Assembly (NCBI GenBank): GCA_002375995.1
Contig: DFNI01000011.1
Span: 13,333-77,332, forward strand
Direction: 5' to 3'
Origin: Acetothermia bacterium UBA3571
GTDB lineage: Bacteria > Bipolaricaulota > Bipolaricaulia > Bipolaricaulales > Bipolaricaulaceae
Length of the DNA stretch: 64,000 nucleotides
A model generated the notes under the pieces. The model was not told the DNA's origin. It did not search any database and was given only the letters and a program-made list of their open reading frames with translations. The position numbers and the translations under genes were made by a program. Below are positions 1 through 19,141 of this stretch, piece by piece; positions within the stretch are counted from its first letter, which is position 1; each line of letters opens with the position of its first letter.

Positions 1-21
1 ACCGACACTTACCGGCACCGG

Positions 22-354
22 TTGGCTGGGGCCGAAAAGGTCCTTCTTTACTCGAGCCGCCACGGGGCCGTCTTCTGGGACCACGGGGGAACCGAGGTTT
101 CCGAGTTCATAGGGAAGTTCCTCGGTGACCTGGATATCGTGCTCCTGGAGGGGTTCAAGGGGGCTTCCTACCCCAAGATCGAGATCTATTCTGGAGGTGA
201 ACCCCTGGCCGGGGCGATCCCCGTGCTCGCCGTGGTCACGAACCAAAAGGTGATCGTTCCCGATGGAGTGCGTATCCTCCCCCGGGATCCCGAGATCGTG
301 GCCGATTTCATCGAGGCCGAGGTCCCCGAAGCCCCTGGGGAAGGAATGGGTTGA
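22..354 (+). CDS. mobB: Molybdopterin-guanine dinucleotide biosynthesis adapter protein MobB, C-terminal part (the ORF is truncated by the window start)
   Basis: The track ORF contains DIVLLEGFKGASYPKIEI, the conserved core of MobB; the N-terminal P-loop would lie upstream of the window. Confidence 0.55.
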   Translation: MAGAEKVLLYSSRHGAVFWDHGGTEVSEFIGKFLGDLDIVLLEGFKGASYPKIEIYSGGEPLAGAIPVLAVVTNQKVIVPDGVRILPRDPEIVADFIEAEVPEAPGEGMG

Positions 355-359
355 GCGTC

Positions 360-701
360 TCAGGCTCCCCTGTGGAGCACGTGATCATATCCGCAGCGGA
401 AGAGCTCCACCACGTGCTCGTCGTCGAGGGAGTAATAGATGGATTTCCCCTCCCGGCGGGTCTTCACCAGGCCCTGCATCCGGAGGATCCTCAGGTGATG
501 GGACGTGGCGGGTTGCGATATCCCTAAAAGCTGGGCGAGGTCGTGCACGCACAGTTCGCCTTGGGAGAGGAGGTAGAGGATCTTCACCCGGGTGGGATCG
601 GCGAGCACGCGGAAGGTTTCCGCCAGCCGCATGGCGGCCTCGGGATCGGGCATCTTCTTCAAGAGCTTCTCGGCTTCCTTTTCGCTCAACGCGTGATACA
701 T
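360..701 (-). CDS. ArsR/SmtB family metal-sensing repressor, CzrA-like with an alpha5 Zn/Co site
   Basis: Winged-HTH region (ADPTRVKILYLL, CVHDLAQLLGISQPATSHHL); C-terminal DEH-x10-HVLH matches the DxHx10HxxH alpha5 metal site of CzrA/SmtB; the gene is divergent from a P1B ATPase. Confidence 0.85.
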   Translation of the reverse strand: MYHALSEKEAEKLLKKMPDPEAAMRLAETFRVLADPTRVKILYLLSQGELCVHDLAQLLGISQPATSHHLRILRMQGLVKTRREGKSIYYSLDDEHVVELFRCGYDHVLHRGA

Positions 702-773
702 AACCCTTTCACTTTAACCCCTAGGGGGCCTTGAACCAAGGAGCGGGAACAGCTATAAATTAGCAAACAATTA

Positions 774-783
774 AACAGCTGTT
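774..783. promoter_or_regulatory. Perfect 10-bp palindrome AACAGCTGTT in the divergent intergenic region; candidate ArsR/SmtB operator
   Basis: Palindrome read directly from the sequence, 5-15 bp upstream of the ATPase start codons and between the divergent arsR and the ATPase; the operator assignment is inference. Confidence 0.3.
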
Positions 784-788
784 CATAG

Positions 789-2939
789 ATGGTGAGCTTT
801 ATGAATCGCACCAAAAACGCGAATGCAAAGGAAACCCAGGAGTTCCGAGTGGGCACGATCCACTGCCCCTCCTGTGCCTTGCAGCTCCAGCGACGCCTCG
901 AGGCGGTACAAGGGGTGGAAGGTGCAGAAGTAAGCCTTCTCGATGGAGTGGTCCGGGTGGTCTATGACCCCAAACGCATCGGAACCCCGGAGCTCGAAAA
1001 GGCCGTGGTTACCCTCGGGGGACAGATCGTCCACCTGGAGGACCACAACCATGACCACACGGGAGATCGGCTCACCTTGATCTCGGGCGTCTTCCTCCTC
1101 GCCGGGGGCCTCGCCTACCTCGCCGGGAACGTGGTCCTGGGTAGGGTGTGGGATGTGGCCATACCCCTCTCCGGCCTCCTCTTCGGCATCGGGGCCGCCA
1201 CCGGGGGGCTGCCCGTGCTGCGGCGCGCGCTCTCGGAGCTCAAGCGGAGGCTCCTCGGCATCGACCTCCTCGTCTCCATCGCCATCATCGGCGCCCTGGC
1301 CTTGGGGGAATCCTTCGAAGCGGCAGCCCTCGCTTTTCTATTCGGGGTCGCGGAGTGGCTGGAGGAGAAGGCCGCGGCCCGGGCCCGCCGCTCCATCCGG
1401 GATCTACTGGATCGGGCCCCGAAACGTGTGACCGTGTTGCGGGAGGGCCGGGAGATCGAGCTCCCCGTGGAGGCGGTGTCTCCCGGTGAGGTGATCCTCG
1501 TCCGGCCCGGGGAAACTATCGGGCTCGACGGGGTGGTGGTCCGGGGCCGCTCCAGCGTCTCCGAGGCCCCCGTCACCGGGGAGTCCACTCCGGTGACGAA
1601 GGAGGGAGGGGACCCCGTTTACGCCGGTACCTTGAACGAAGACGGGTCGCTGGAGGTGCGGGTAATTCGCTCCGCCGGAGAGAGCACCTTGGCCCGGATC
1701 GCCGCCCTGGTGGAAGAGGCACAACACCGGAAGGCCCCGGTGGAGCGGACCGTGAACCGCTTCGCCCGCTACTATACCCCCGCCGTGGTGGGAGCGGCCG
1801 TCCTCGTGGCCGTCATTCCCACCGCCCTGGGTTTCCCTCTCCGGGACTGGATCCTTCGGGCACTGATGCTCCTCGTCATTGCCTGCCCCTGTGCCCTCGC
1901 CATCTCCACCCCGGTGTCCATGATCTCTGCTTTAGTGGCTTCGGCCAAGCGGGGGATATTGGTAAAAGGCGGCGCGGCGTTGGAGGCCATCGCGAAAGTG
2001 CGGTTCCTGGCCGTGGACAAGACCGGCACCCTCACCACCGGAGAGCTGCGAGCGGAAGTGGTGCCGCTTGACGGAACGGACACGCGGGAGATCCTAAGAG
2101 TTGCCGCGGCCCTGGAGAAAGGAAGCGAACATCCCATCGCCCGGGCTATACGGGCGCTCGCGGAAGGAGAGGATCACCTGCCGGAGGTCACAGACTTTAA
2201 GGCCCTTCCGGGCTTGGGAGTGAGGGGTAGGATCCAAGGGGAAGAGTATGTGGTGGGACGTCCCGAGCTCTTCGGGGACATGCCCCCCGCGGTGCAAAAA
2301 CTCATCTCCTCGGGGAGGAGCGTGGTGCTGGTGGGTAAGGAAAAGGGCCCCATCGGCGCGATCCTCCTCTCCGACGAGATCCGCCCCGAAGCCCGGGAGG
2401 CCATCGCGGCCACAAGGAGGTTGGGGGTGGAACCGGTTCTCCTCACCGGGGACCGGGCCCCGGTGGCCAGGGCGGTGGCCGAGGCGTTAGGAATCAAGGA
2501 GGTCCACGCCGAACTCCTTCCGGAGAAGAAGCTCTCCCTAGTGGAGGACCTCAGGAGGCGCGGTGGAGTAGCGTTCGCGGGAGATGGGATAAACGATGCC
2601 CCCGCCCTTGCAGCTGCGGACGTGGGGATCGCCATGGGCGCCATCGGGACCGACGCCGCCATCGAGGCCGGCGATGTAACGCTGATGCGCGACGACCTCC
2701 GGGATGTCCCCCGGTTGATCTCCCTGGGCCGCCGGACCCTGCGGGTAATCCGGTGGAACATTGGGATCGCCCTGGCGTTGAAGCTCGCCGTGGCCGGGTT
2801 CGCCTTCGCCGGCTTCGCTTCCCTGGCCCTGGCCGTCCTCATAGGCGATGTTGGGGGGACGTTGGTGGTCACCGGGAACGCCATGCGCCTCCAACGGCCC
2901 GTATTTGAACCGAAAAATGAGGAGGTGTCGGACGCATGA
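789..2939 (+). CDS. Heavy-metal translocating P1B-2 type ATPase (Zn2+/Cd2+/Pb2+ exporter, ZntA/CadA-like)
   Basis: N-terminal HMA-like domain with CPSC; TM6 CPC motif (IACPCALAISTP); DKTGTLT phosphorylation site; GDGINDAP; TM7 Lys (ALKLAV) and TM8 DxG (IGDVGGT) diagnostic of the Zn/Cd subgroup. A second ATG at 801 has the better SD (GGTGAG). Confidence 0.9.
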   Translation: MVSFMNRTKNANAKETQEFRVGTIHCPSCALQLQRRLEAVQGVEGAEVSLLDGVVRVVYDPKRIGTPELEKAVVTLGGQIVHLEDHNHDHTGDRLTLISGVFLLAGGLAYLAGNVVLGRVWDVAIPLSGLLFGIGAATGGLPVLRRALSELKRRLLGIDLLVSIAIIGALALGESFEAAALAFLFGVAEWLEEKAAARARRSIRDLLDRAPKRVTVLREGREIELPVEAVSPGEVILVRPGETIGLDGVVVRGRSSVSEAPVTGESTPVTKEGGDPVYAGTLNEDGSLEVRVIRSAGESTLARIAALVEEAQHRKAPVERTVNRFARYYTPAVVGAAVLVAVIPTALGFPLRDWILRALMLLVIACPCALAISTPVSMISALVASAKRGILVKGGAALEAIAKVRFLAVDKTGTLTTGELRAEVVPLDGTDTREILRVAAALEKGSEHPIARAIRALAEGEDHLPEVTDFKALPGLGVRGRIQGEEYVVGRPELFGDMPPAVQKLISSGRSVVLVGKEKGPIGAILLSDEIRPEAREAIAATRRLGVEPVLLTGDRAPVARAVAEALGIKEVHAELLPEKKLSLVEDLRRRGGVAFAGDGINDAPALAAADVGIAMGAIGTDAAIEAGDVTLMRDDLRDVPRLISLGRRTLRVIRWNIGIALALKLAVAGFAFAGFASLALAVLIGDVGGTLVVTGNAMRLQRPVFEPKNEEVSDA

Positions 2940-3994
2940 GAACGTGGTTTCTCGCCGGAAGCACCGTTCTTTTCCTGGCCTTTTTGGCTGCAGCGGGACC
3001 ATCCCTGCAGGTGGAACCCACGGTTTACCGGTTCGGCGAGGTGACGGAGGGGATCCTCGTCCGCGCGGTGTTCGTCCTAACCAATGTGGGCGATGCCCCC
3101 CTGGTTTTCCCCCGTCAACCACACACCTCCTGCGGCTGTACCAGCGCCCCGCTGCCGAAAGGGGAGCTCCTTCCCGGAGAATCGATGGAACTGGTGGTTC
3201 TCTTCGACTCCACCGGCTTCGGGGGGCGGAAGATAGCCAGGAGGGTGGAGCTTTTCTCGAACGACCCCGAGCAACCTAAACGGATTCTGTTACTGGAAGG
3301 ATACGTGCGCAAGCCCCTGCCACACGAAGCCTCGGCTTCCACCCTGTATTACGGTTTTTACCTTTTGGTGGACTTAAGATCTCCCGATGCTTACGCCCGA
3401 GGACATCTGTTGGGAGCCATCAATATCCCTCTGGAGGACCTTGAACTCTGGGCCGATCGTCTTCCCAAGGCCCTCCCCATCTATCTCTACGATGAGACCG
3501 GAGAAGGTGCCGCGGAGGCGGCACGGCTCCTGCGGGAGCGCGGGGTTGTGGTGGCCCGGGCCATTGCTGGCGGGCTCTTGGGATGGCGGGAGGAGCTTGG
3601 AGACGCTTTCTTCACTCACCCCCTTGGGGGCCCGAAAGCACCCCCTTCCGGCAAGGGGGAGGGCAAAAGCCGCGCGGTGAGCCCCCGGCGCGTGGCCAGG
3701 AACTACTACGTGATAGTGGACTTGCGCACGGTCCAAGAGTTCGCCGCCGGACACATCCCCGGCGCGTTGAACCTGACCCCTGAAGAACTCCCCACGTGGC
3801 TCGCCGCGCTTCCCCCCATCGGGGATGCAGGTGCCCTTCACATATGGCTCGTAGACGCTGACGGAACCACGGCTTGCGAGCTGGCCGCCGCGCTGCGGAA
3901 CGAGGGGTACGGGAACATCTATTGCCTCGTGGGCGGAATCGAACAGTGGAAGGCCCGCTACCCCGATCTCCTGTGGAGCGGGCCGGCCAATTGA
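2936..3994 (+). CDS. Secreted DUF1573-domain protein fused to two rhodanese (sulfurtransferase-like) domains
   Basis: Signal peptide; DUF1573-type beta-sandwich with TSCGCTS motif; two rhodanese-like modules (DLRSPDAYARGHLLGAINIP; DLRTVQEFAAGHIPGALNL; catalytic-loop-like CLVGG); the ATGA start overlaps the ATPase stop, which suggests translational coupling. Confidence 0.7.
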   Translation: MRTWFLAGSTVLFLAFLAAAGPSLQVEPTVYRFGEVTEGILVRAVFVLTNVGDAPLVFPRQPHTSCGCTSAPLPKGELLPGESMELVVLFDSTGFGGRKIARRVELFSNDPEQPKRILLLEGYVRKPLPHEASASTLYYGFYLLVDLRSPDAYARGHLLGAINIPLEDLELWADRLPKALPIYLYDETGEGAAEAARLLRERGVVVARAIAGGLLGWREELGDAFFTHPLGGPKAPPSGKGEGKSRAVSPRRVARNYYVIVDLRTVQEFAAGHIPGALNLTPEELPTWLAALPPIGDAGALHIWLVDADGTTACELAAALRNEGYGNIYCLVGGIEQWKARYPDLLWSGPAN

Positions 3995-4027
3995 GGTACC
4001 CGTGATTTTCTCTACATCCGACAACCA

Positions 4028-5158
4028 GTGATTAATAAAATAGTACATACCTGGACCGTTTTGGGCGCGCTTCTGGTTGGTTTTCTCCCAGCCCTAGGGG
4101 TGGAACTGGTTTTCTTCTATGATCCCGGATGTCCGCACTGTGCCCGCATCGATGCCTTCCTCGCAGAAATAGGGCCCGATTATCCGGAGCTCCAGGTAGT
4201 TCGCTTCAACATCCGGGAGCCCCAGGCCAGGGAGATATTGGAGAAGCTCCTCGTCGCCTACGGTGTGGAACTTGGCCCAGTGCCGCTGATATTTGTAGGG
4301 GATGTGGCCTTAGTCGGGGACACCTTCTACGGGCTGGAAGAGGAGCCGGTGACCCTCCACGGGCGGGCCGGGGAGATGGCCTTGGAGGAAGCGATTCAGC
4401 GGGCCATCGCGGAAGGGGCCCCCTCTCCCTTAGCGCGGGCGGAGGGGGTCCAGGGCCGCGACTTGGCCGAAAAGCTCACCTTGCCCGCTGTCCTCGTGGC
4501 CGCGGCGGTGGACTCGGTGAACCCTTGTTGTTTCGCGATCCTCATATTCCTTTTCGGCGCTTTGCTCGTCGCAGGGCGGCGGCGCCGGATCCTTCCCATC
4601 GGGCTTTCCTTCCTTTCCGCCATTTACATCTCGTACTTCCTCATGGGGCTTGGGGTCTATTCGGCTATCCAAGCCGCCGGGGTGCAGTACTACTTCATCC
4701 TTTCCGTCTCGATCCTCGCGGTACTCATGGGGGTGTGGTCCATCAAGGACTACTTCGCCCACGGGAAGTGGTTCAGCCTCGAGGTTCCCCAGCGCTGGCG
4801 CCCCCTCTTGAAGCGGCTCACCGCGTCGGTGGTTTCTGTCCCTGGGGCATTTGCTATCGGGATCCTGGACTCCCTCTTTCTCCTTCCCTGTTCGTCGGGT
4901 CCCTATATCGCCATATTGGCGCTTATTTCCCGGACGACCACCAGGGCCCAGGGGATTCTTTACCTCCTCCTCTACAACCTGGTCTTCGTCCTCCCCCTTC
5001 TCATCCTCACCCTGGGGGTACACTTCGGTTTTACCACCACCGCCCGGGCGGAGCGGTGGCGTGCCCAACGGGTGCAGAAGCTACATCTCGTTTCGGGAGC
5101 GGTGATGGTTCTCCTGGGAATTGGAATGATCGTGGCCCTCCAGCTCGGTTACGTTTGA
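4028..5158 (+). CDS. Thioredoxin-like domain (CPHC) fused to a CcdA/DsbD-type transmembrane thiol-disulfide transporter
   Basis: N-terminal periplasmic Trx-like domain with FYDPGCPHCARI; C-terminal multi-TM domain with NPCCFAIL and LLPCSSGPY, typical of CcdA/DsbD electron-transfer cysteines. Confidence 0.75.
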   Translation: MINKIVHTWTVLGALLVGFLPALGVELVFFYDPGCPHCARIDAFLAEIGPDYPELQVVRFNIREPQAREILEKLLVAYGVELGPVPLIFVGDVALVGDTFYGLEEEPVTLHGRAGEMALEEAIQRAIAEGAPSPLARAEGVQGRDLAEKLTLPAVLVAAAVDSVNPCCFAILIFLFGALLVAGRRRRILPIGLSFLSAIYISYFLMGLGVYSAIQAAGVQYYFILSVSILAVLMGVWSIKDYFAHGKWFSLEVPQRWRPLLKRLTASVVSVPGAFAIGILDSLFLLPCSSGPYIAILALISRTTTRAQGILYLLLYNLVFVLPLLILTLGVHFGFTTTARAERWRAQRVQKLHLVSGAVMVLLGIGMIVALQLGYV

Positions 5159-5232
5159 GCGGCCAATGACTCCCAAAGAAGCCGGCGTGGCCTTTCGGCC
5201 ACGCCGGCTTCGCTCGTAACTCTGGACCCACC

Positions 5233-5409
5233 TCAGCCGCAGCAGCCGTGGCTTTCCTCGGGAAGGTAGCGTTCGGGGTCCTTCTCAAAAGCTTCTTTAC
5301 AGCTCGGCCCGCAGAAGTGGTAGGTTTTCCCCTTGTACTCCACTGCCTCCGTGGCCGTGTTGGGATCCACCTCCATACCACACACGGGATCCCGGACCTT
5401 GTCCGCCAT
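5233..5409 (-). CDS. Small YHS/TRASH-domain metal-binding protein (58 aa), below the track's 60-aa cutoff
   Basis: Manual translation: MADKVRDPVCGMEVDPNTATEAVEYKGKTYHFCGPSCKEAFEKDPERYLPEESHGCCG; YHS consensus DPVCGM...YxFCxxxC; RBS GGAGGTGAGGAGAG upstream. Confidence 0.6.
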   Translation of the reverse strand: MADKVRDPVCGMEVDPNTATEAVEYKGKTYHFCGPSCKEAFEKDPERYLPEESHGCCG

Positions 5410-6114
5410 CTCTCCTCACCTCCTTTTCCTCGATGATGGCCGTTCCCCGTTCCCGGGGCCGCCTCGCCAACACGAACCCCATCCCCACAACGTAGGCGAA
5501 ATATACAACGAGGGAAGGGGCGGGGTTGTGGCCGAAGAGGGAGGATGGGAAGCGCCCCGGGGCGGAGGAGCTCGGGAGGATCGGGTTCAGATCCCACAGG
5601 CGTTCCACCGCCGTGGGGAGGACCGCCGCCTCCTGGAGCCCGTGTACCCCGCGGGCGAGAAATCCCGCGGCCACGAAGAGCAGAAGCCACGAGGTGCCGG
5701 TGAAGAACGCGGAGGGCTTTGCCCGGAGGCCGAGGGCGTAGATCCCCCAACCCAATAGCACGGCCACGCCGATACCCGAGCTCCTCGACCAACGCCCCCG
5801 TGCCCCCAGTTTGGAACGCGGCCGCGCTCAAGAAGAGGACCGTTTCCACGCCCTCCCTTGCCGCGACCACGAAGGAGAACCCGAACAGCCCCCCATCCTC
5901 CGAAGATCTCCTCAGCCCGGCCTTCCAGGGCGACCCCCGCGGCGCCCACCGCCGGGCCCACGGCGAGGCTCGTGGCGACGGCTCCCGGGAGCCCTCACCA
6001 GGCCCATTTGATCAGCTCGTGCTGTCCAAGCCTCCGCAGGGCGACGACCAGCACGCCCAAGATGAGAGCGGCCTCGAGCCCTTCCCTGAGGCCGATCGAG
6101 AAAGCTGCGGCCAC
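5410..6114 (-). pseudogene. Degraded EfeU/FTR1-family iron permease gene (in-frame stop, internal deletion and at least two frameshifts)
   Basis: GTG start at 6114 with RBS GAAAGGAG. The N-terminus VAAAFSIGLREGLEAALILGVLVVALRRLGQHELIKWAW then hits TGA. The second RExxE motif (AAREGVETVLFLSAAFQTGG) lies in a different frame (track ORF 5031..5870). The C-terminal TMs (AFFTGTSWLLLFVAAGFLARGVHGLQEA) lie in a third frame (ORF 5297..5767). About 45 aa are missing between the motifs relative to E. coli EfeU. Confidence 0.55.
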
Positions 6115-6361
6115 GGGTCTCCTTTCGCTCCGAACGGAGTGATATCAAAACACATTCGCATTTTATGCTCGGCGGGAGGGGTAACAACCCTTCCTAGGAA
6201 GTTCCGTGGCCTCTGAATGCAAACTACATCAATAATTTTGGAGCATGCACAGATAAAAATGTCTCCATACAATCTCCACGATCTCTTCATCCTCTCTCCA
6301 CAGCCGTCCAGGAGAATTCCCCTGACCCAATGCGCTACAGCGGAAATCTGGAGGTGATGGA

Positions 6362-7000
6362 ATGGCTCATAGAGGTCGGGCCGTCGGTGTTCTCTTTTTT
6401 ACTGCGTTTTCCGTGTTCGTGGCACTCTTCCCCGTCGCGGCACAGAGCCAGTTACTGGACGAGCTCCGTGCCGAGCTGATACCCGGGGAAGGCGCGAAAA
6501 CTTCCTACGGACTCCCACTGTCCCTCGATAACATCCAGACCTTTGCCGATTGGTACTACTCCATCCAACTGTCTCCGGAGGAGAAGGAGATCTTCCGGGA
6601 AGCCCTTTCGGCCATTCCCGCCCCTTGCTGCGACGACAACCCGGTACTCAAATGCTGTTGCCAGAAAACGAACCGCATCTGTAACCTCACCCGCTCGGCC
6701 ATGGGGCTCGGAGCGTGGCTCATCCACGAAAAGGGCTTTACTGCCGAGGAGACCAAAGCCGCGGTGGAGGAGTGGCTCCGTTTCCTGAGGCCCCAGTACT
6801 ACCTCGCCTTGGCCCTGGAGGAGAGGGGCCTCGATCCCCGGGAATACGGCCTCAAGGAACACGAGGCTTACGAGTCCTGCGATCAAAAGCTCTGCGAGGT
6901 CCCACTGGACGCGGGCGGGTGCGGTGGAATGGGCCTTAAAGTGCTTTTGAAGGAAAAAGAGGAGGTTCCCGCTTGCTGCCGCGCCGAAGGGGGCCAATAA
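6362..7000 (+). CDS. Secreted cysteine-rich protein of unknown family, paralog 1 (PCCDD / CCC / ICNL / CxxxLCE / GGCGGMG motifs)
   Basis: Signal peptide (VFVALFPVAAQSQ); nine Cys conserved with the downstream paralog; no recognisable domain. Confidence 0.6.
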   Translation: MAHRGRAVGVLFFTAFSVFVALFPVAAQSQLLDELRAELIPGEGAKTSYGLPLSLDNIQTFADWYYSIQLSPEEKEIFREALSAIPAPCCDDNPVLKCCCQKTNRICNLTRSAMGLGAWLIHEKGFTAEETKAAVEEWLRFLRPQYYLALALEERGLDPREYGLKEHEAYESCDQKLCEVPLDAGGCGGMGLKVLLKEKEEVPACCRAEGGQ

Positions 7001-7017
7001 TGGAGCGGTGATACCCT

Positions 7018-7653
7018 ATGCCCAAGGGCGTGGAAAAGAGGAAGTCAAGGAGAAAGGGAATGATCAAATTGATCGTGTTGGCGGGACTAGGAGTGTTGGC
7101 GGTGGGGCTCGTGTTCCTCCTCATGCCCCATGGGTCGAACTCCGCGGACGCCGAGGAGATTTCCCTAGCAGAGCTCGAAGCGGAGGTGATTCCCCCGGTG
7201 GGGAAGGAGACTGCATACGGGATCCCCCTTTCCTGGAACAACGCCCAGACCTTCGCCGACTGGTACTACGAGGTCCGGCTCTCCCCAGAAGAGTCGGCCC
7301 TACTTCAGCGAGCCCTGAAGGAAATTCCTACCCCCTGTTGCGACGATACCCGGATCACGCGGTGCTGCTGTGAGCGCTCAGGGTACATCTGCAACCTCGT
7401 GAGGAGCGCCCGGGGGCTCGCAGCGTGGCTCATCCGGGAGAAGGGCTTTGGGGAAGGAGAGGTACGGGAGGCGGTGCTCGAGTGGGTGCGGTTCGCCCAC
7501 CGCAAATACTTCCTCGCCCTCGCGCTAAAGGATCGGGGGGTGAACCCGACGAAATACGGTCTCACCACCAAAGGGGCTTGTTATCGGCAGCTGTGCGAGC
7601 GCCCCATGCGGGAGGGAGGCTGCGGCGGGATGGGTGAGCGAGTGGAGATTTAA
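7018..7653 (+). CDS. Secreted or membrane-anchored cysteine-rich protein of unknown family, paralog 2
   Basis: The same nine-Cys pattern (PCCDDTRITRCCCERSGYICNL, CYRQLCE, GGCGGMG) and a shared TFADWYY motif; likely start at MIKLIV (7060); a rho-independent terminator follows. Confidence 0.6.
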   Translation: MPKGVEKRKSRRKGMIKLIVLAGLGVLAVGLVFLLMPHGSNSADAEEISLAELEAEVIPPVGKETAYGIPLSWNNAQTFADWYYEVRLSPEESALLQRALKEIPTPCCDDTRITRCCCERSGYICNLVRSARGLAAWLIREKGFGEGEVREAVLEWVRFAHRKYFLALALKDRGVNPTKYGLTTKGACYRQLCERPMREGGCGGMGERVEI

Positions 7654-7684
7654 TCGGAACCCTCAGAACCCCCTTCCGATATAG

Positions 7685-7716
7685 GCGCCGGCCTTCACCG
7701 CCGGCGCTTTTTCTTC
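7685..7716 (+). terminator. Rho-independent terminator (GGCGCCGGC-loop-GCCGGCGC followed by TTTTTCTT)
   Basis: GC-rich hairpin and T-tract seen directly after the second Cys-rich gene. Confidence 0.6.
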
Positions 7717-7800
7717 ACGGAAACTCCACACGAGCTTCCTTGAACTTTCATCGAGATGGTTTAAAGTGAAAATACGTTTAAAAATCGAAAGGAGAGCACA

Positions 7801-8187
7801 GTGGCCAACTACAGTTACCGGAAGACCGTGAGCCTCCCCTTCGGGGAGGTGGTGGAAAAAGTCAAAGATTCCCTGGCCAAGGAGGGCTTCGGGATCCAAG
7901 CCGAGATCGACCTCGCCCGGGCCATGCGGGAGAAACTCGGGGTGAAGTTCGAGGACTACGTGATCCTCGCCGCCTGCAACCCTCAGCTCGCCCACAGGGC
8001 CCATGCCGCCGAGACGGACGTGGGACTGCTTCTTCCGTGCCACGTCATCGTTTACCGTGACGGAGACACGGTCCGCATCGCCGTGGCCCGGCCCACCGTG
8101 GTGCTGGGGGTCGCAGGGAACCCGGAGCTCATGCGGGTGGCCCAGGAGGCCGAGATCCAGCTCATCCAGGCCCTGGACGCAGCTTGA
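7801..8187 (+). CDS. DUF302 domain protein
   Basis: ILAACNPQLA and LLPCHVIVY motifs are characteristic of DUF302; GTG start with RBS GAAAGGAGAG; an AT-rich putative promoter (TTGAAC-16-TAAAGT) lies upstream. Confidence 0.8.
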   Translation: MANYSYRKTVSLPFGEVVEKVKDSLAKEGFGIQAEIDLARAMREKLGVKFEDYVILAACNPQLAHRAHAAETDVGLLLPCHVIVYRDGDTVRIAVARPTVVLGVAGNPELMRVAQEAEIQLIQALDAA

Positions 8188-8197
8188 GGAGGTAACG

Positions 8198-8365
8198 ATG
8201 CCGTGGGGAGAGGAAATGGGAATGGGTTGGATGGTACTCTTTGGGTTATTGGGACTTTTCGTCTTCGGGGCCGTGATTTATGTCGCGGTGCGCTTGGCCA
8301 CCGGCGGAAGCCGCCGGGGCGACCGCCACCACCACGACGGCGGCGCCGGGGGACACTGCTGCTAG
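8198..8365 (+). CDS. Small single-TM peptide with a His/Cys-rich C-terminus (55 aa)
   Basis: Internal ATG of track ORF 8003..8365 with a strong RBS (GAGGAGGTAACG-ATG) 11 bp after the DUF302 stop: MPWGEEMGMGWMVLFGLLGLFVFGAVIYVAVRLATGGSRRGDRHHHDGGAGGHCC. Confidence 0.4.
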   Translation: MPWGEEMGMGWMVLFGLLGLFVFGAVIYVAVRLATGGSRRGDRHHHDGGAGGHCC

Positions 8366-8374
8366 GAGTGGGTC

Positions 8375-9007
8375 ATGGCCGCCGAGACCGCCCGTAGACG
8401 CTATGACCCTATCGCCCCGGTTTACGATCTCTTGCAGTGCCCGATGGGACGGGCCTCCGCCTCTTGGCGGAAGCGGCTCTGGGCTGAGGCAAAAGGCCCT
8501 CGCCTCCTCGAGGCCGGGGTGGGAACGGGACGCAATTTTCCGTTTTACCCCAACTCGGCCAAGATCACCGCGGCGGACATAAGTCCCCGGATGCTCGCCC
8601 GGGCGAGGGCCCGCGCCTCCCGCATGGACCTTGAGGTTGAGCTCCGGGAGATGGACATTCAGTCCCTGGGTTACCCCGATAACAGCTTCGATTCCGCCGT
8701 CTCTAGCTTCGTGTTCTGTTCGGTGCCCGACCCCGTGCGGGGGCTTAAGGAGCTCGCCCGGGTGGTGAAGCCCGGAGGAAGGATAGTCCTTCTTGAGCAC
8801 GTACGTCCCCGGGGGCGGGTGCTCGGGCGGCTCTTCGACTTCCTTACCCCCTTGGTGGTGCGGCTTTTCGGATTCCGCCTGAACCGGCGGACCGTGGAGA
8901 ACGTCCGCCGCGCCGGGCTTAAGCTGGAGAGGGTTGATTACCTCGATCGGGTGGGGATCGTGAAGCTGATCGTGGCCCGCCCGCACAAGGAGGTGGACGA
9001 TGGCTGA
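8375..9007 (+). CDS. Class I SAM-dependent methyltransferase (UbiE/Methyltransf_11-like)
   Basis: Motif I LEAGVGTGRNF, acidic loop ITAADISPRM, and motif post-I/II region VKPGGRIVLLEH. Confidence 0.8.
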   Translation: MAAETARRRYDPIAPVYDLLQCPMGRASASWRKRLWAEAKGPRLLEAGVGTGRNFPFYPNSAKITAADISPRMLARARARASRMDLEVELREMDIQSLGYPDNSFDSAVSSFVFCSVPDPVRGLKELARVVKPGGRIVLLEHVRPRGRVLGRLFDFLTPLVVRLFGFRLNRRTVENVRRAGLKLERVDYLDRVGIVKLIVARPHKEVDDG

Positions 9008-9374
9008 GGTGAAGGAAAGGCCGGTGGGGGCGTTCGTACTGTCGCTCCTTGCCGGGATCTGGATGGTGGGCGCAGGACTCATGATATACCGTTGGAGCGG
9101 CACCACGTCTTGGATGTGGGGCCACGGGATGATGGGCGGATACCTCGGGTGGGGTCGGTTGCCCTGGTTGGGCTTGATTTTCGGGATCGTGGTCCTCGTC
9201 GGGGCAATCGCTATTTACCTTAGGCCCGACAAAACCTCAGGTTGGGGTATCGCCATCCTGGTGGCCTCCGCCGTGAACGTCCTCTTCGGCATGGGAGGGC
9301 TGCTCGCAGGACTTCTGGGGATCGCGGGTGGAGCGTGGGCCATCGCCTGGAGGCCGGGAGAAGGTGGTGATTGA
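9000..9374 (+). CDS. Hypothetical integral membrane protein (3-4 TM, Trp/Gly-rich)
   Basis: Hydrophobic segments; overlaps the start of the downstream Cu ATPase, which suggests co-transcription. Confidence 0.5.
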
Positions 9375-11611
9375 TCATGGCGGTGAAGGATCCGGTATGC
9401 GGGATGGAGCTCGAGGCGGCCTCGGCCGCCGAGACCCGGGAGTTCCGGGGAAAGACCTACTACTTCTGCTCCTCCTCCTGCGCAGATAAGTTCGATAAAG
9501 AGCCGGAAAAGTACGCCGGTGCCCCTGGTGGAGGCCATGAACACGGGGAGCACGCTGGGCACAGTGGACACGAACATCACGAGTACAAGGCCCATGAGGG
9601 CCACGCCGGCCATGCCAAACACGAAGGCATGGGCCACGGGGAACACGGGCACCACGACCATCACGCCCACCACGCCCAGATGGTGGCTGACTTCCGCCGC
9701 CGGTTCTGGGTCTCCCTAGGCCTCACTGTCCCCATCCTGCTTTTGTCTCCCCTGATCCAAAAATTCTTGGGCCTCCCCAAGGCTTTGGCCTTCCCGGGAG
9801 CTCCCTACCTCCAGCTCGTCCTCGCCTCCGCGGTCTACTTCTATGGCGGCTGGCCCTTCCTCAAGGGCATGTGGGATGAGCTCAGAAAAAAGCAGCCGGG
9901 GATGATGACCCTGATCGCCCTGGCCATCTCGGTGGCCTACGTGTACTCCGCCGCGGTGGTCCTAGGCCTTGCGGGCCAGGTCTTCTTCTGGGAGCTGGCC
10001 ACATTGATCGACGTGATGCTCCTTGGGCACTGGATCGAGATGCGGTCGGTGTTGGGCGCGTCCAAGGCGCTGGAGGAGCTCGCACGCCTCATGCCTTCTA
10101 CCGCCCACCTCCTTAAGGATGGAACGGTGGAGGACGTTCCCATCGAGGTCCTGAAACCCGGCGATCGGGTGCTGGTGAAACCGGGAGAAAAGATCCCCGT
10201 GGACGGCATCGTGATCGAGGGGCGCACCACGGTGAACGAGTCCATGCTCACCGGGGAGTCCCGGCCAGTGGAAAAAGGCGAGGGCGATGAGGTGATCGGC
10301 GGTGCGGTGAACGGGGAGTCGGCCATCACCGTGGAGGTCAAGCGCACCGGGGACGAGACGTATCTCGCGCAAGTGATCGATCTCGTGAGGAAGGCCCAGG
10401 AAGCCCGCTCCAAGACCCAGGACCTCGCCAACCGGGCGGCCCTGTGGCTCACTATCATCGCCCTCGGCGGAGGTGTGGCCACACTCCTCGGGTGGCTGGG
10501 GGCTGGGAAGGATTTCAACTTCGCCCTCACCCGGATGGTCACGGTAATGGTGATTGCCTGCCCGCACGCGCTGGGGCTTGCGATCCCGTTGGTGGTCTCG
10601 GTGTCCACTGCCATCGCCGCCCGGCGTGGGTTCCTCATCCGAGATCGCACCGCCTTCGAGCGGGCGCGCGGGCTTCAGGCAGTGGTGTTCGACAAAACCG
10701 GCACCCTCACCCTGGGCCAGTTCGGGGTCACCGACGTGGTGGCCTTCTCCGAGCTCCCCGAGGAAGAAGTGCTGCGGCTCGCAGCGGCGGTGGAGTCACG
10801 CTCCGAGCACCCCATAGCAGCGGGGATCGTGGCCGCCGCCAAAGAACGGAAGATCGAGATCCCCGAACCCCAGGACGTGAAGGCCATCCCCGGCCGGGGT
10901 GTCGAGGGAAAGCTGGACGGAGAGCCGATCATGGTGGTGAGCCCGAGCTACCTCGCCGAGCAGGGACACGATCCCGACGACCCCCGGGTGGCAGAACTCG
11001 CCTCCCAGGGGAAGACGGTGGTCTACCTCTTGGTGGACGGGAAACCCATAGGGGCCATCGCCCTCGCGGACATGATCCGGCCCGAGTCCCGGGAGGCGGT
11101 GGAGAAGCTAAAGGGGATGGGCATCAAGGTCATGATGCTCACCGGAGACGCCGAAGAGGTGGCCAAGTGGGTGGCCGGCGAGTTGGGCCTCGACCACTAC
11201 TTCGCCCAGGTCCTCCCCCACGAGAAGGCCGAGGTGATCAAGAAGGTGAAGGCTCAAGGGCTTACCGTGGCCATGGTGGGGGACGGGGTGAACGACGCGC
11301 CGGCCCTGGTGGAGGCCGATGTGGGCATTGCCATCGGAGCAGGGACCGATGTGGCCATCGAGTCGGCGGACATCGTGCTCGTGCGCAACGATCCCCGGGA
11401 CATCGCGGCGGTTATCAGCCTCGCCCGGGCCACCTACGGGAAGATGGTCCAGAACCTGGGTTGGGCCACGGGCTACAACTCCTTCGCCATCCCCATGGCC
11501 GCCGGAGCTCTGTACCCGGTGGGGGTGCTGCTTTCGCCGGCGTTGGGGGCGGCGCTGATGGCCCTTTCCACGGTGATCGTGGCCATCAACGCCCGCCTGC
11601 TCAAGGGGTGA
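9371..11611 (+). CDS. copB: Copper-translocating P1B-3 type ATPase (CopB-like) with an N-terminal YHS domain and His-rich stretch
   Basis: N-terminal DPVCGMELE...[12 protein letters not shown] (YHS); His-rich region ([46 protein letters not shown]); TM6 CPH motif ([12 protein letters not shown]); DKTGTLT; GDGVNDAP; TM8 MALST. Confidence 0.9.
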
Positions 11612-11751
11612 CCGATGCCCGCGAAAGGGACCCCGCCCGCTCAAGAACACACTGCTCGGGTTGCGTGGCTCCATAAAGCCGCGCCGCCGGCTCGAGGACC
11701 TGGAGCGGGTGCGGGCGGAGGTGCGCCGCCGCACGAGACTGAGGGTTCAGG

Positions 11752-11988
11752 GCTTTAAGACCTGACCCTGAGAAACCTGACTCGGGCGTTCCGAGGGGCT
11801 ATGCGGACACTGAGGTTGTCCTTGTTGCTTTTGGGCACGGTGATATCGCAGGAACCTTCGGCTTTTGGGTCACCGATAAGGAGAACGCTTCACTCCTGGA
11901 CTCCTTCTACTTCACCCTCGTCACGGTGGCCACCGTGGGCTACGGTGACATCACCCCGCGAACCACCGCCGGGACATCACCCGCTTAA
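11752..11988 (+). pseudogene. Remnant of a K+ channel gene (TM1, pore helix and TVGYGD selectivity filter, then a stop; no start codon and no TM2)
   Basis: Manual translation of the frame between TGA (11749) and TAA (11986): ...TEVVLVAFGHGDIAGTFGFWVTDKENASLLDSFYFTLVTVATVGYGDITPRTTAGTSPA*. A possible upstream N-terminal piece lies in another frame (11650-11765). Confidence 0.4.
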
Positions 11989-12017
11989 GCTGCTGTGCCG
12001 AGTGACCGGTGCTTGGG

Positions 12018-12049
12018 TTGACCTGGCACCGTGGTGCAGGGTTTATAGT
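12018..12049 (+). promoter_or_regulatory. Putative MerR-type promoter: TTGACC, 20-bp spacer containing the inverted repeat GCACC-gt-GGTGC, then TATAGT
   Basis: -35 and -10 hexamers are 20 bp apart, the MerR-regulated promoter hallmark; the ATG of the MerR gene lies 9 nt after the -10 with no SD, so the transcript is probably leaderless. Confidence 0.35.
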
Positions 12050-12058
12050 GGATAGCTG

Positions 12059-12472
12059 ATGGAGTATCTGACGGTGGGACAATTGGCGGAGCGGGCAGGG
12101 GTGAAGAGATCTGCCCTGCGTTACTACGAGCGGCGAGGCCTTCTCCTCCCAGCACGGCGAAGCCCATCCGGTTACCGCCTGTACCTGCCCGACGCTGTGT
12201 CCACCGTGGTGTTCATAAAGAGGGCCCAGGGTCTCGGCTTCTCCCTGGGCGAGATCGCAGAGCTCCTCGCATTGCGCCGTGCCCCAGCTCTCCCGCGGGA
12301 TCGGGTGCGCATGCTGGCTGCGGAAAAGCTCCAAGAAGTAAGGCGAAGGATCGCGGCCCTGCGGGAGCTTGAAGCGGCTTTGGAAGGACTCCTCGAGGCC
12401 TGTGAGAGGTCCGGGGATCCCCGCAGTTGTCCCATTCTCTCGGCATTGGAAGTAATAAGGAGATGCGATTGA
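12059..12472 (+). CDS. MerR family metal-responsive transcriptional regulator, CueR-like
   Basis: N-terminal HTH (LTVGQLAERAGVKRSALRYYERRGLL), a coiled-coil dimerisation helix, and a C-terminal CERSGDPRSCP (C-x8-C-P) metal-binding loop resembling CueR. Confidence 0.85.
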   Translation: MEYLTVGQLAERAGVKRSALRYYERRGLLLPARRSPSGYRLYLPDAVSTVVFIKRAQGLGFSLGEIAELLALRRAPALPRDRVRMLAAEKLQEVRRRIAALRELEAALEGLLEACERSGDPRSCPILSALEVIRRCD

Positions 12473-12720
12473 TCGAGATCTTCAGCGCGGGTTGCCCGGT
12501 CTGTGAGGAAATTGTCAAGCGGATCAGCGAGATCGGCTGCGACGCCCGTGAGATTCGTGTCCTTGACATGCGCGATCCCCAGGTGGCCCAGCGAGCGAAT
12601 GAGTTGGGGATCCGGGCGGTCCCGGCGGTAGTGATCGACGGGAAGCTCGCCGACTGTTGTGCCGACGCTGGACCGGATCTAGCCACCCTCAGAAGCCTGG
12701 TCCCGGGCCGCGAGAAATAG
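12463..12720 (+). CDS. Small thioredoxin-fold protein (Thioredoxin_3/glutaredoxin-like, CPVC active site)
   Basis: IEIFSAGCPVCEE active-site motif; about 85 aa; overlaps the MerR stop; the start is ATG 12463 or TTG 12469 (the RBS AAGGAG lies 6 nt before the TTG). Confidence 0.7.
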   Translation: MRLIEIFSAGCPVCEEIVKRISEIGCDAREIRVLDMRDPQVAQRANELGIRAVPAVVIDGKLADCCADAGPDLATLRSLVPGREK

Positions 12721-13097
12721 GTCAAGCTGCGGCGTTTCCACGGGGCCTCCGTCTCTCCTCTAAAACTTTTCCGCTCGGAAGTTATAAAATGAATTTCAAA
12801 AACGTTTTCGACTTTGCATTGGCCGAAATCGCTGGAACGGGGAGGTTTATATGAGAAAACCGTTTCCGGATAAGACGAGGTCCACGAGCCCACAAACGGA
12901 TAACTCCGTACCGTCCCGCTCCGTCGACGCGGACCCGGGGCACTTCCCACCCCACTCCACGCGGCTCCGCCTCCACTTATCCAGCATGTCCGTTCAGCAA
13001 GCCCCGGGGGCACGGTGATCATCGGTGCCCCGTGGCGACACAAGCTACGCCTGAAGCGCGCTTTTACGCGGTGCAGATCACAAAAAGGAGGTTTGAA

Positions 13098-13717
13098 ATG
13101 CGTTTACGAGGTTTTACAGCAGTAGGGATGGCGATGCTGTTCCTTCTTTCCGGCCTCCCCCTCACAGCACAATCGCCCTCCTCGAGCTCAGCACCACCGC
13201 CCGTCTCGATCTGGTTTTCCGTGCCCTCGGAGTTGGAGAGGCTGAGGGGAGAATTGGAGAGGGAGTTGAGCCAGCGGTTCCGAGAAGCAGGTGAGGGGCT
13301 GGGCGTGCCGTTGCCCAGGAACAATCCCGTTCCGGGGATGTCCATCGGGATCTTCCCCGACGGGACATTCGCTGCGGTGGTACCTGCCCGGGGCTTGGCG
13401 AGCCTTCCATCTGTCCTCCGTGGGAGAACGACCTTGGGGTTGCTTTACCTTTCGGCCCCCGGGGGTCAGCTCCCGAGCGGCTTTTATAGGATGGAGCTTA
13501 GCTATGGTCCTAGGAGTCAAGTCATTCTCACCGGGGTGGCTGTAGGGGGGACGGTCCCGCACCTTCGCCTTCCCGGCTTTCCTCGAGGACAACTCTGGGG
13601 GAGACGCCGCCCCATCAAGTACCCGGTTGCAGTGGAAGCCCGTACCGAGCGGAGGCGAAGTCTGTGTCTCCGTAACCGTGGGCAAGATCTCGGTGGTCGT
13701 CTGCATCCGCTGGTGAG
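13098..13717 (+). CDS. Hypothetical secreted protein; coding apparently continues in another frame after about 13560 (frameshift)
   Basis: RBS AAGGAGG before ATG 13098; signal peptide MRLRGFTAVGMAMLFLLSGLPLTAQS. After about 13560 the tail of the track ORF frame turns R-rich with low GC3, while the -1 frame has high GC3 (…LQWKPVPSGGEVCVSVTVGKISVVVCIRW*) and stops at 13717, just before a strong terminator. Confidence 0.4.
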
Positions 13718-13738
13718 CACCCCGGTGCAACGCCAAAA

Positions 13739-13767
13739 GGGGGAGGTACCTGCCTCCCCCTTTCTCT
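13739..13767 (+). terminator. Rho-independent terminator (GGGGGAGG-tacctg-CCTCCCCC then TTTCTCT), possibly bidirectional
   Basis: Perfect 8-bp GC stem plus T-tract; it lies inside the tail of track ORF 13032..13811, which argues that tail is not coding. Confidence 0.55.
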
Positions 13768-13963
13768 CGAAGGCTTGGCAGCGGGTGGCCGGACGGGGGC
13801 TCGAGGCGTGATGTCTCAGGGATGTGTACGGGAGAAGTCCGAAGTTGACCCCCTGGAGTGCGTCCACCGGGGGTTTGCGGGAAAAAGCGGGCAACGGCCA
13901 CGCCGGTGGCCATCCGCGGGAAGTCCCTCGATCGCTGTTTCCCCTCCGGCCCTGAACCCGCGG

Positions 13964-14470: not shown

Positions 14471-14473
14471 AGA

Positions 14474-15587: not shown

Positions 15588-15592
15588 CGGCG

Positions 15593-17296: not shown

Positions 17297-17299
17297 CCC

Positions 17300-19134: not shown

Positions 19135-19141
19135 GCGGCGT

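Follow-up and report, generated by a model that had tools for sequence, protein, structure and literature searches.

A probably inherited metal-homeostasis supercluster undergoing reductive decay in thermophilic Bipolaricaulota

Is a crowded and partly broken set of metal-handling genes the product of recent assembly from foreign parts, or is it an old locus that is being dismantled? The question is raised by a 12-kb block (positions 360 to 12,720) within a stretch of 64,000 nucleotides from Acetothermia bacterium UBA3571 (contig DFNI01000011.1). The whole stretch is referred to here as the window. An initial annotation of the block had described a composite of Zn/Cd and Cu homeostasis systems with periplasmic thiol chemistry, and had taken it for a mosaic accessory region that was probably acquired horizontally. 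Its inventory holds: every gene and remnant was found in its place by open reading frame (ORF) listing and by Pfam and NCBIfam scans, and the composite character is borne out by two P1B pumps of different subtype and two metal-type regulators. The proposed origin, however, was not borne out. It is likely that the block is a chromosomal supercluster for metal homeostasis, passed down vertically in a thermophilic Bipolaricaulota (Acetothermia) lineage and seen in the midst of reductive decay.

The window was compared with a set of contigs and loci designated by L-numbers. The closest relative is represented by L013 and L071, two contigs from one sample (ERZ27262676) that abut inside a methyltransferase gene. 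L007 is strain J31, and L011 and L016 correspond to JdFR-48. Homologs of the window genes are labelled Candidatus Bipolaricaulota or Acetothermia. The ORFs of the block were scanned against Pfam and NCBIfam, and bit scores were judged against the curated model cut-offs.

The block and both of its flanks are colinear with the closest relative, with an overall nucleotide identity of 75-89%. The left flank and the segments aligned by blastn are as follows.

22 to 354, plus strand: C-terminal part of MobB, cut by the window start, the conserved left flank (Pfam MobB E = 3.6e-9).
1 to 5429: equivalent to L013 152 to 5574, 81%.
6464 to 8532: equivalent to L013 9443 to 11514, 80%.
8690 to 11611: equivalent to L071 1 to 2882, 85%.
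11798 to 11972: equivalent to L071 2955 to 3130, 75%.
11969 to 12659: equivalent to L071 5095 to 5802, 75%.
14012 to 22000: equivalent to L071 6078 to 14046, 88.6%.

The MobB gene directly abuts the ArsR gene, the first of the block, in L001, L007, L011, and L013. On the right the block is followed by HIT, BFN, and PolX, and the colinearity with L013/L071 runs from MobB past PolX. The comparison of synteny that the initial annotation had proposed shows the block to be present and colinear in L013/L071, L011/L016, and L007. Both JdFR-48 and J31 share a core order of ArsR, P1B-2 pump, DUF1573/rhodanese protein, thioredoxin (Trx)-CcdA fusion, Cys-rich gene(s), membrane protein, and CopB. In both, MobB is the next gene on the left of this core, and the full SmpB-AFOR-MobB flank is seen in J31.

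Neither the composition of the block nor its edges sets it apart. The tetranucleotide z-scores range from -2.0 to +1.7 and the GC content from 0.61 to 0.65, like the rest of the window. The nearest tRNA gene is located at 37.6 kb, some 25 kb away, and beyond paralog matches no repeat of at least 30 nt flanks the block. Pfam scans of the block ORFs revealed no integrase or transposase. The intact genes of the block display dN/dS values of 0.03-0.21, with dS mostly between 0.39 and 0.94 and rising to 1.1-1.6 for the short YHS and thioredoxin-like genes and for the Cys-rich gene parA. The most deviant part of the window is found at positions 24000 to 30000, where the tetranucleotide z-score reaches 2.9 and the GC content is 0.67-0.68. 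This region encodes citrate lyase (CitF and a CitE/ACP fusion), an aconitase-family protein, and a PhoPQ-related protein, and it contains no metal genes.

A recently acquired island, namely a mosaic of transferred metal-resistance modules inserted between MobB and HIT, is very unlikely when these observations are set against it. Such an island would be compatible with the absence from J31 of Cys-rich paralog A, the DUF302 protein, the methyltransferase, and the MerR-Trx pair, with the pseudogenes inside the block, with a helix-turn-helix (HTH) fragment of insertion-sequence (IS) type upstream of SmpB, and with a 1.35-kb segment at 12660 to 14011 that is specific to the window. It would also suit the MerR homologs, which fall from 70-79% to ~55% identity in other phyla. 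Yet the core is colinear in the two deeper relatives as well, the region of most unusual composition is the citrate-lyase cluster, and the lineage differences are explained by deletions with mapped junctions. The largely similar dS values, leaving aside three short or fast-evolving genes, fit co-divergence. Synteny, uniform conservation, and an ordinary composition had been named beforehand as signs that would speak against acquisition. The block is syntenic and compositionally ordinary, but its gene content varies, and this set of signs is thus only half borne out.

Several points weigh against inheritance of the locus in its present form. The right flank in J31 and JdFR-48 is different, with YHS74 and an NB-ARC/TPR gene rather than MerR-Trx-HIT, and at least one older rearrangement must therefore have occurred. 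Beyond the left end of the window, ~3.4 kb upstream, there is a fragment of an IS-type transposase. At 80-85% identity the block has diverged a little further than the housekeeping flank (88.6%). Finally, all of the relatives except J31 are metagenome-assembled. As for the IS fragment itself, it was located just beyond SmpB in L001 (228 to 491, 87 amino acids (aa), HTH_Tnp_1 / LZ_Tnp_IS481), a position at which J31 has an SbcC-like gene.

The broken genes of the block can be compared with intact counterparts in the relatives. The features concerned are the following.

5233 to 5409, minus strand: YHS/TRASH mini-protein of 58 aa with a C-terminal HGCCG (YHS E = 6.5e-20; dN/dS 0.10 versus L013).
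~5462 to 6113, minus strand: pseudogene of an FTR1-family permease, spread over three frames with one in-frame TGA and at least two frameshifts (Pfam FTR1 on one fragment).
11812 to 11985, plus strand: K+ channel remnant, consisting of only the pore helix and the TVGYGD filter (Ion_trans_2 E = 4.8e-13).

The order of the minus-strand operon in the relatives is copA-p108-FTR1-YHS, and L013 holds an intact FTR1 (279 aa), a 108-aa gene (p108), and HMA-CopA (807 aa). Here the operon is reduced to its last gene, YHS, and the FTR1 pseudogene. The FTR1 remnant matches the intact protein of L013 in three pieces with 50-59% identity, and its dN is 0.44 versus 0.02-0.22 in intact genes. Whereas the REGLE and REGVE motifs are retained, the uninterrupted frame required of a functional permease is not. 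Window positions 5430 to 6463 (1.0 kb) correspond to L013 5575 to 9442 (3.9 kb), so that the locus is a net 2.8 kb shorter here and is devoid of both p108 and CopA. This loss of a CopA gene had been overlooked in the initial annotation. The K+ channel remnant is equivalent to residues 7-64 of an intact 240-aa Ion_trans_2 and TrkA_N gene of L011, and ~75% of its length is gone. L071, like L011, encodes an intact channel of this type. With respect to L071 a deletion junction lies near 11970, and 2.0 kb have been lost. The missing segment carries the C-terminus of the K+ channel, YHS64, an EamA fragment, and two small ORFs. Because the relatives hold intact FTR1, CopA and p108, and K+ channel genes, the remnants are attributed to lineage-specific differential loss and not to mosaic assembly.

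It might be argued instead that the FTR1 and K+ channel genes are really intact and that the breaks are assembly or sequencing errors, given that the source is a metagenome-assembled genome (MAG; GCA_002376485.1), where frameshifts are common artefacts. The probability of this is exceedingly small. Some 16 kb of the window sequence is 100% identical across six assemblies (JGI 3300032190 and 3300032171, ENA ERZ529317, NCBI GCA_002376485.1, and Logan SRR1628696 and SRR1628698), and because all six carry the same sequence the broken frames are not assembly noise. In addition to its frameshifts, FTR1 has a raised dN and a stop codon, and the K+ channel lacks most of its length beyond a clean junction.

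What the surviving genes might do can be considered unit by unit. The block is arranged, as read from the sequence, in five transcription units: the ArsR gene with the divergent P1B-2 pump genes, the reduced minus-strand operon, the Cys-rich pair, the CopB operon, and the MerR-Trx pair. The Zn/Cd-type unit at its left end, together with the divergent repressor gene, contains the following features.

360 to 701, minus strand: ArsR/SmtB-family repressor (HTH_5 E = 7e-22; NF033788 115 bits versus a cut-off of 55).
772 to 785: imperfect palindrome TAAACAGCTGTTCA in the divergent intergenic region between the ArsR and ATPase genes, read by eye and not flagged by the repeat finder.
789 to 2939, plus strand: P1B-2 (ZntA/CadA-type) heavy-metal ATPase with an N-terminal HMA (CPSC) domain (TIGR01512 496 bits versus 313.5).
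2936 to 3994, plus strand: secreted protein with a DUF1573 (SCGC) and two rhodanese domains (DUF1573 E = 8e-16; Rhodanese E = 9e-32 in two stretches).
4028 to 5158, plus strand: thioredoxin-like (CPHC) domain fused to a CcdA/DsbD-type membrane thiol-electron conduit (DsbD_TM 33.7 versus 27.1 bits).

The best solved relative of the ArsR protein is SmtB (1r1t, 2.5e-25). ArsR combines the winged-helix HTH_5 domain with the ligand set DxHx10Hx2(H/E) that characterizes the alpha5 zinc sensors of the SmtB/CzrA type. The zinc ligands are kept in the form DEH-x10-H-x2-H, with D-E-H and H-V-L-H falling on D104/H106 and H117/E120 of SmtB. The protein is 96.5% identical in amino acid sequence to its L013 ortholog, with a dN/dS of 0.03. 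The palindrome TAAACAGCTGTTCA is a candidate for the ArsR operator. A repeat search of the intergenic regions revealed no convincing dyad of the MerR type or of any other operator.

The true start of the P1B-2 ATPase is probably the ATG at position 801. The pump aligns with ZntA (4umv) at 2.5e-115, and its IACPCAL, ALKLAV, and DVGGTLVVTGN segments lie on C392/P393/C394, K693, and D714 of that enzyme, thereby providing the CPC, the lysine of transmembrane helix 5 (TM5), and the DxGx7N that are the P1B-2 signatures. It does not reach the models specific to E. coli ZntA (NF033775, 465 versus 1240 bits; NF008262, 529 versus 1005 bits). From its sequence the pump is predicted to be a Zn(II)/Cd(II)/Pb(II)-type exporter. 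The start of the next gene overlaps the ATPase stop codon by 4 nt, and its product has a signal peptide. The rhodanese fold of this protein is present (Pfam, 110 bits), but an aspartate replaces the catalytic cysteine in both domains. In the active-site alignment YDETGEG is matched with YCRTGGRS of 3tp9, and VDADGTTA with VDDDGVRA of 1yt8. Judged from these residues, both domains are catalytically dead. In the Trx-CcdA fusion, the Trx part displays a Glutaredoxin fold, albeit weakly (18.9 bits). The membrane part has, besides the DsbD_TM match, the one cysteine per helix in two transmembrane helices (VNPCCFAIL and LLPCSSGPY) that is expected of CcdA/DsbD. The fusion is 89% identical to those of L013, L011, and L007, with a dN/dS of 0.08.

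The CopB-type unit occupies the right half of the block and includes the following genes.

7801 to 8187, plus strand: DUF302 protein, first gene of the CopB operon (DUF302 E = 1.8e-20).
8216 to 8365, plus strand: 49-aa peptide with a single membrane pass, a His-rich tail, and a C-terminal GGHCC (no Pfam match for the longer ORF).
8375 to 9007, plus strand: class I S-adenosylmethionine (SAM)-dependent methyltransferase (Methyltransf_11 E = 2e-24; below the cut-off of every NCBIfam model).
9000 to 9374, plus strand: Met/His membrane protein (124 aa; HGMMGGY motif; DUF6114 matched weakly), overlooked in the initial annotation.
9371 to 11611, plus strand: CopB-type (CPH) P1B ATPase whose N-terminus carries a YHS domain and ~50 residues rich in His (YHS 4.9e-16; TIGR01511 626 versus 397 bits).

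The P1B-3 subgroup is defined by a His-rich N-terminus in place of HMA domains (PMC5947656). The pump encoded here has such an N-terminus, shows no HMA match in Pfam, and contains the CPH motif within IACPHAL. It matches LpCopA (3rfu) at 6e-136 and the ATP-binding domain of A. fulgidus CopB (3skx) with 352 bits over 276 residues, and it is 87-95% identical to the pumps of the relatives. The helix signatures of P1B-3 pumps reportedly are YN(x)4P and MSxST, as put forward by Arguello in 2003. GYNSFAIP is present in the window pump, and its last helix (TM8) reads MALST, with an alanine for the first serine.

DUF302 orthologs occur in L013 and L011 and are absent from J31. The methyltransferase is likewise present in L011 and L013, and is absent from J31 and L017. 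The GGHCC terminus of the 49-aa peptide is invariant in an alignment of four orthologs. Since the tail follows arginine residues it is probably cytoplasmic, and the peptide could be a membrane-tethered metal-binding tail that serves the CopB pump. The gene for the 124-aa protein lies directly upstream of CopB and overlaps its start, an arrangement that holds without exception in J31, L017, and L071 as well. The protein is 75-85% identical in these three, where the WGHGMMGGY loop is invariant. In JdFR-48 (L011 11363 to 12357) the gene calls for the methyltransferase and the 124-aa protein consist of a 262-aa fusion and a separate 68-aa ORF, which suggests a frameshift and a further sign of ongoing decay at the locus.

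Between the decayed operon and the CopB unit lies a pair of genes for secreted or anchored Cys-rich proteins.

6362 to 7000, plus strand: Cys-rich paralog A (parA), 212 aa, with a signal/anchor, a nine-cysteine (9-Cys) domain, and an extra C-terminal PACC tail.
7018 to 7653, plus strand: Cys-rich paralog B (parB), 211 aa, with an N-terminal membrane anchor and an all-alpha domain (PCCDD-x5-CCC-x6-CN ... C-x4-C ... GGCGGM).
7683 to 7709, plus strand: hairpin resembling an intrinsic terminator that closes the parA-parB unit (10-bp stem with 8 GC pairs, then a T-run).

The two proteins are 50% identical to one another (E = 1e-67). ParA is ~74% identical to its L013 ortholog by tblastn, or 77.7% over the aligned codons, with a dN/dS of 0.10. 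Neither protein has a Pfam or NCBIfam match, and a profile of the family found nothing among the PDB sequences even at E = 10. Close homologs numbered 213 from one search, and a profile search of 1.84 billion cluster representatives gave 196 matches (~200 at 50% identity). The near-invariant positions of the family alignment are P-CC-DD-x5-CCC-x6-C-N-x2-R-x3-G-L, one tryptophan, one phenylalanine, C-Y-x3-C, and GGCGGM. Each domain thus has nine conserved cysteines, six of which fall inside 19-20 residues. There are two deep branches, one in the Bipolaricaulota and the other of the Acidobacteriota/Latescibacterota type. The second comprises ~125 proteins, all "hypothetical" and without Pfam domains, in which the motif reads CCCxCN. 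Its few named members come from Thermoanaerobaculia, Acidobacteria, and Latescibacterota MAGs. Across both branches the motif can be written as P-CC-[DK][DK]-x5-CCC-x(1 or 6)-CN ... C-x4-C ... GGCGGM.

The N-terminus of the 9-Cys proteins consists of a Lys/Arg-rich segment followed by a single hydrophobic helix, and by this layout the 9-Cys domain should sit outside of the cytoplasmic membrane. Strain J31 is a diderm (bioRxiv 10.1101/2025.11.21.689855), and for that reason the word "periplasmic" in the initial annotation is apt for these proteins. No consistent twin-arginine motif, as would mark a twin-arginine translocation (Tat) signal, was seen across the family alignment, and an exported Fe-S protein is considered unlikely on that account.

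A scan of 185,579 species genomes yielded 52 loci with a Cys-rich gene, nearly all in Bipolaricaulota/Acetothermia MAGs; some carry the labels of other phyla. The pair repeatedly adjoins copper pumps. A CopA-type pump lies divergent and upstream at 11 of the 52 loci (L016, L018, L020, L021, L023, L024, L030, L039, L040, L041, and L044), often with a YHS gene behind it, and the same layout is found at three loci from other collections (L008, L013, and L014). An ArsR gene or a P1B-2 pump adjoins the pair at L017, L019, and L022. At L045, L048, and L049 the Trx-CcdA gene is directly upstream with FTR1 nearby, and L048 adds a redoxin and an FtrD-like gene (PF10080). Members of the family are also fused to an active-type rhodanese or to a domain that matches HMA only weakly and scores under the Pfam cut-off, and one has a long His-rich linker. 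In the rhodanese-fused members P0122 and P0131, both metagenome proteins, the C-terminal domain keeps the CRxGxR active-site motif. At a subset of loci (L014, L021, L023, and L024) a co-oriented PALP (cysteine-synthase-like) gene stands between CopA and the pair. Taken from sequence and gene order, the rhodanese fusions and PALP neighbors suggest a sulfur-transfer connection. The member with the His-rich linker (L073) is on a contig of GC 0.70, directly downstream of OEP and multicopper-oxidase genes, and a CPH ATPase 54% identical to the window CopB lies ~2.5 kb farther downstream. The L073 methyltransferase showed no match to that of the window at E = 1e-3, so that the recurrence of a methyltransferase beside a CopB-type pump may be a coincidence.

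On the basis of these associations we offer, as a tentative proposal that may well prove wrong, that the pair belongs to an undescribed membrane-anchored extracytoplasmic family that would hold a Cu(I)-thiolate cluster, serve P1B copper pumps as a periplasmic acceptor, buffer, or redox partner, and be kept reduced by Trx-CcdA. The 9-Cys proteins could otherwise be thiol-disulfide oxidoreductases, built as CcmH-like helical modules, or disulfide-stabilized envelope proteins, in which case their proximity to pumps would be a loose, clade-specific synteny. This is unlikely, even though Trx-CcdA is adjacent at several loci and the genes of the Bipolaricaulis-type clade stand in a lipoate neighborhood rather than a metal one. 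An hhalign comparison with CcmH gave a probability of 1.7%, and a Foldseek search with the predicted 9-Cys domain returned nothing at E <= 0.001. Moreover, six cysteines in 19 residues together with GGCGGM constitute a metallothionein-like density and not a CxxC redox motif, and the links to CopA, CopB, P1B-2, multicopper oxidase, the weak HMA match, and the His-rich linker recur over two deep branches.

FTR1 systems need periplasmic copper proteins and thioredoxins, as in Campylobacter cj1658-65 and the FtrABCD systems of Brucella and Bordetella. The central part of the block may accordingly be viewed as a former copper-dependent iron-uptake module of the FTR1 type, not a detoxification system, in which copA-p108-FTR1-YHS was divergent from parA-parB, CopA loaded copper onto the 9-Cys proteins in a P19/cupredoxin role, and the whole is now defunct. 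The intact L013 operon, divergent from the pair, has just this arrangement, and FTR1, Trx-CcdA, and a Cys-rich gene occur together at L045, L048, and L049, with the redoxin and FtrD-like genes following in L048. Such a history is nonetheless quite unlikely. Purifying selection still acts on the pair in the window and in J31, both of which have lost FTR1 and CopA. Most CopA-linked loci (L014, L018, L020, L021, L023, L024, L030, and L039-41) have no FTR1 within 8 kb, and the distant member beside a multicopper oxidase, OEP, and CopB-type pump is in a detoxification context.

For the inherited metal-homeostasis locus, then, the following scheme can be envisaged. ArsR would sense Zn, Cd, or Pb and release the first operon, and the P1B-2 pump would expel the metal. 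Outside of the membrane, the DUF1573 SCGC protein and the 9-Cys pair would receive or buffer expelled thiophilic metal, chiefly Cu(I). Trx-CcdA would pass cytoplasmic electrons outward and thereby keep the SCGC and 9-Cys thiols reduced. CopB, with its YHS/His-rich N-terminus, would export copper, perhaps receiving it from the HHH...GGHCC tail that the 49-aa peptide would extend into the cytoplasm, and perhaps assisted by the HGMMGG membrane protein. CopL provides a precedent for a surface or extracytoplasmic copper-binding partner of CopB-type pumps (PMC5947656; PMC11672702).

Some findings tell against this functional scheme. The extracytoplasmic thiol chemistry of the initial annotation stands as regards the Trx-CcdA fusion, the DUF1573 SCGC protein, and the 9-Cys pair, but its sulfur component is weakened because both rhodanese domains are dead. 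In the Bipolaricaulis-type clade a lone 9-Cys gene has GcvH, LplA, and radical-SAM lipoate genes as its neighbors and no metal genes in the vicinity, and the family is therefore not obligatorily linked to metals. The functions given here are drawn from family membership and gene neighborhood. In L068 (6001 to 9174), and similarly in L069 and L070, the Cys-rich gene is directly upstream of GcvH-like, LplA, radical-SAM, and LplA genes and is divergent from a conserved 222-aa protein without a Pfam match.

The remaining features are the intergenic region before parA and the right edge of the block.

6114 to 6361: divergent promoter region left after the loss of p108 and CopA (window/L013 blastn, promoter and terminator scan).
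12059 to 12472, plus strand: MerR-family regulator of the metal type with a C-x8-C loop (Pfam MerR, MerR_1, and MerR-DNA-bind).
~12463 to 12720, plus strand: small thioredoxin-like protein (CPVC), translationally coupled to MerR (Thioredoxin_3 29.4 versus 24.8 bits).
12660 to 14011: window-specific segment of 1.35 kb (275 bp in L071) that forms the right edge before HIT (blastn versus L071).

Only two sigma70-like matches were found in 14 kb, at 6246 to 6273 on the plus strand and at 6187 to 6160 on the minus strand, and both point outward from the divergent region. A leader motif, CATCCTCTCTCCACA, is located at 6288 to 6302 and is conserved in the relatives. In the form CATCCTC(C/T)CTCCACA it is kept ~75 nt before the parA start in L013, L011, L018, and L020, whereas identity over the rest of the intergenic region is ~50%. 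Pairing of the CCUCC within the motif with the GGAGG of the ribosome-binding site is conceivable. In a search for a structured leader upstream of parA, RNAalifold gave only this 5-bp CCUCC:GGAGG pairing without covariation, and no such leader is proposed here. An Rfam search of positions 1 to 15000 at E values up to 1 gave just sub-threshold eukaryotic noise and no known RNA elements.

The MerR protein had been called CueR-like. That label could not be sustained: TIGR02044 scores 98.8 versus 147.4 bits, and the loop C-ERSGDPRS-C is of the C-x8-C and not the C-x7-C type. The NCBIfam MerR, CueR, and ZntR models all remain below cut-off, and the metal specificity of the protein is not assignable. 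Nor does the protein conform to the Hg(II) sensor MerR, which has three cysteines with one at the start of the dimerization helix (TIGR02051, 109.5 versus 150.85 bits; no cysteine in LLALRRAPALPRDRV). A homolog with 79% identity occupies the same place in L071 and is again paired with a thioredoxin-like gene. In L072 two such MerR-Trx pairs stand around a MerA-like gene, which hints that the pair may be part of a mercury-type module in some thermophiles. On L072, a hydrothermal-vent contig, positions 714 to 3612 encode a MerR, a thioredoxin-like protein, a 466-aa MerA-like pyridine-nucleotide disulfide reductase, a second MerR (70% identical to that of the window), and the product of an 88-aa gene. 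The segment at 12660 to 14011 is the only lineage-specific gain in the locus. It contains an ORF of 237 aa (13098 to 13811, plus strand) with a signal peptide and a good ribosome-binding site and without a Pfam match, and an AT-rich stretch at 12760 to 12860.

The block offers a clean, dated case of reductive decay in a conserved metal locus of a barely cultured phylum, with the ancestral states still intact in relatives. It also points to unannotated accessory proteins that travel with P1B pumps, chiefly the 9-Cys family and then the GGHCC peptide and the HGMMGG protein. The syntenic cluster in J31, the first cultured member of the Bipolaricaulota, opens these proteins to experiment. If the 9-Cys domain is indeed a Cu(I)-cluster protein, it would represent a new fold among the few periplasmic copper-handling proteins, and the family would match CopG, CopL, or CusF in function while differing from them in fold.

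How, finally, does the block compare with known systems? In its first unit it resembles the SmtB/CzrA-regulated ZntA/CadA modules, with which it shares a divergent ArsR bearing an alpha5 site and a pump with HMA-CxxC, CPC, TM5 lysine, and DxGx7N. It differs in that the pump unit adds the secreted DUF1573(SCGC)-dead-rhodanese protein and the Trx-CcdA fusion, and we know of no characterized znt, cad, or czr operon with such an arrangement. The CopB pump has the CPH motif, His-rich N-terminus, and AfCopB-like ATP-binding domain of the P1B-3 enzymes (A. fulgidus and E. hirae CopB, S. aureus CopB/CopX). As in the case of copX and the CopL lipoprotein gene copL, it is encoded alongside extracytoplasmic or membrane accessory proteins. 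In contrast to the characterized CopB systems, there is an extra YHS domain, the partners are the DUF302 protein, the GGHCC peptide, the methyltransferase, and the HGMMGG protein, and there is no DUF1541 CopL; TM8 reads MALST as against the MSxST reported for these pumps.

CopG (DUF411), a Cys-rich protein of the periplasm that confers copper resistance and binds a Cu4 cluster bridged by Cys (PMC8872213, citing Hausrath 2020), sets a precedent for periplasmic copper proteins of the Cys-cluster kind. It may be regarded as a functional analog of the 9-Cys pair, and of L073 especially, in being small and extracytoplasmic with clustered Cys/Met and in being encoded in copper-resistance gene clusters beside multicopper oxidase, RND, or ATPase genes. 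The pair, however, has no DUF411 or other Pfam match, its predicted fold is all-alpha and not thioredoxin-like, and its motif is CC-x7-CCC-x(1 or 6)-C versus CxCC in CopG. The three-helix domain of CcmH/NrfF is different again: the 9-Cys domain lacks LRCxxC, is more than twice as large, and is linked to it neither by hhalign nor by Foldseek. Cytochrome c maturation genes were not seen in any 9-Cys locus examined.

Reductant conduits of the DsbD/CcdA-ScsB type are linked to copper tolerance, as in Salmonella scsABCD. The window protein is likewise a CcdA-type membrane domain fused to an external CPxC Trx-like domain and encoded among copper genes, and by analogy Trx-CcdA would keep envelope thiols reduced under copper stress. 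Unlike ScsB/DsbD, it has one N-terminal Trx-like domain and a core of six transmembrane helices instead of the alpha-beta-gamma arrangement, and it belongs to a Zn/Cd-type pump operon. With the FTR1 systems (FtrABCD, P19-cFtr1, and EfeUOB) the relatives share an FTR1 with two REXXE motifs and, in L048, the FtrD-like, redoxin, and Trx-CcdA genes. They differ in that no P19, cupredoxin, or EfeO/EfeB partner was found, and in the window the permease is a pseudogene. In kind, then, the block is ordinary: its pumps and regulators add members to families that are already well known, and it is a lineage-specific variant of known clusters.

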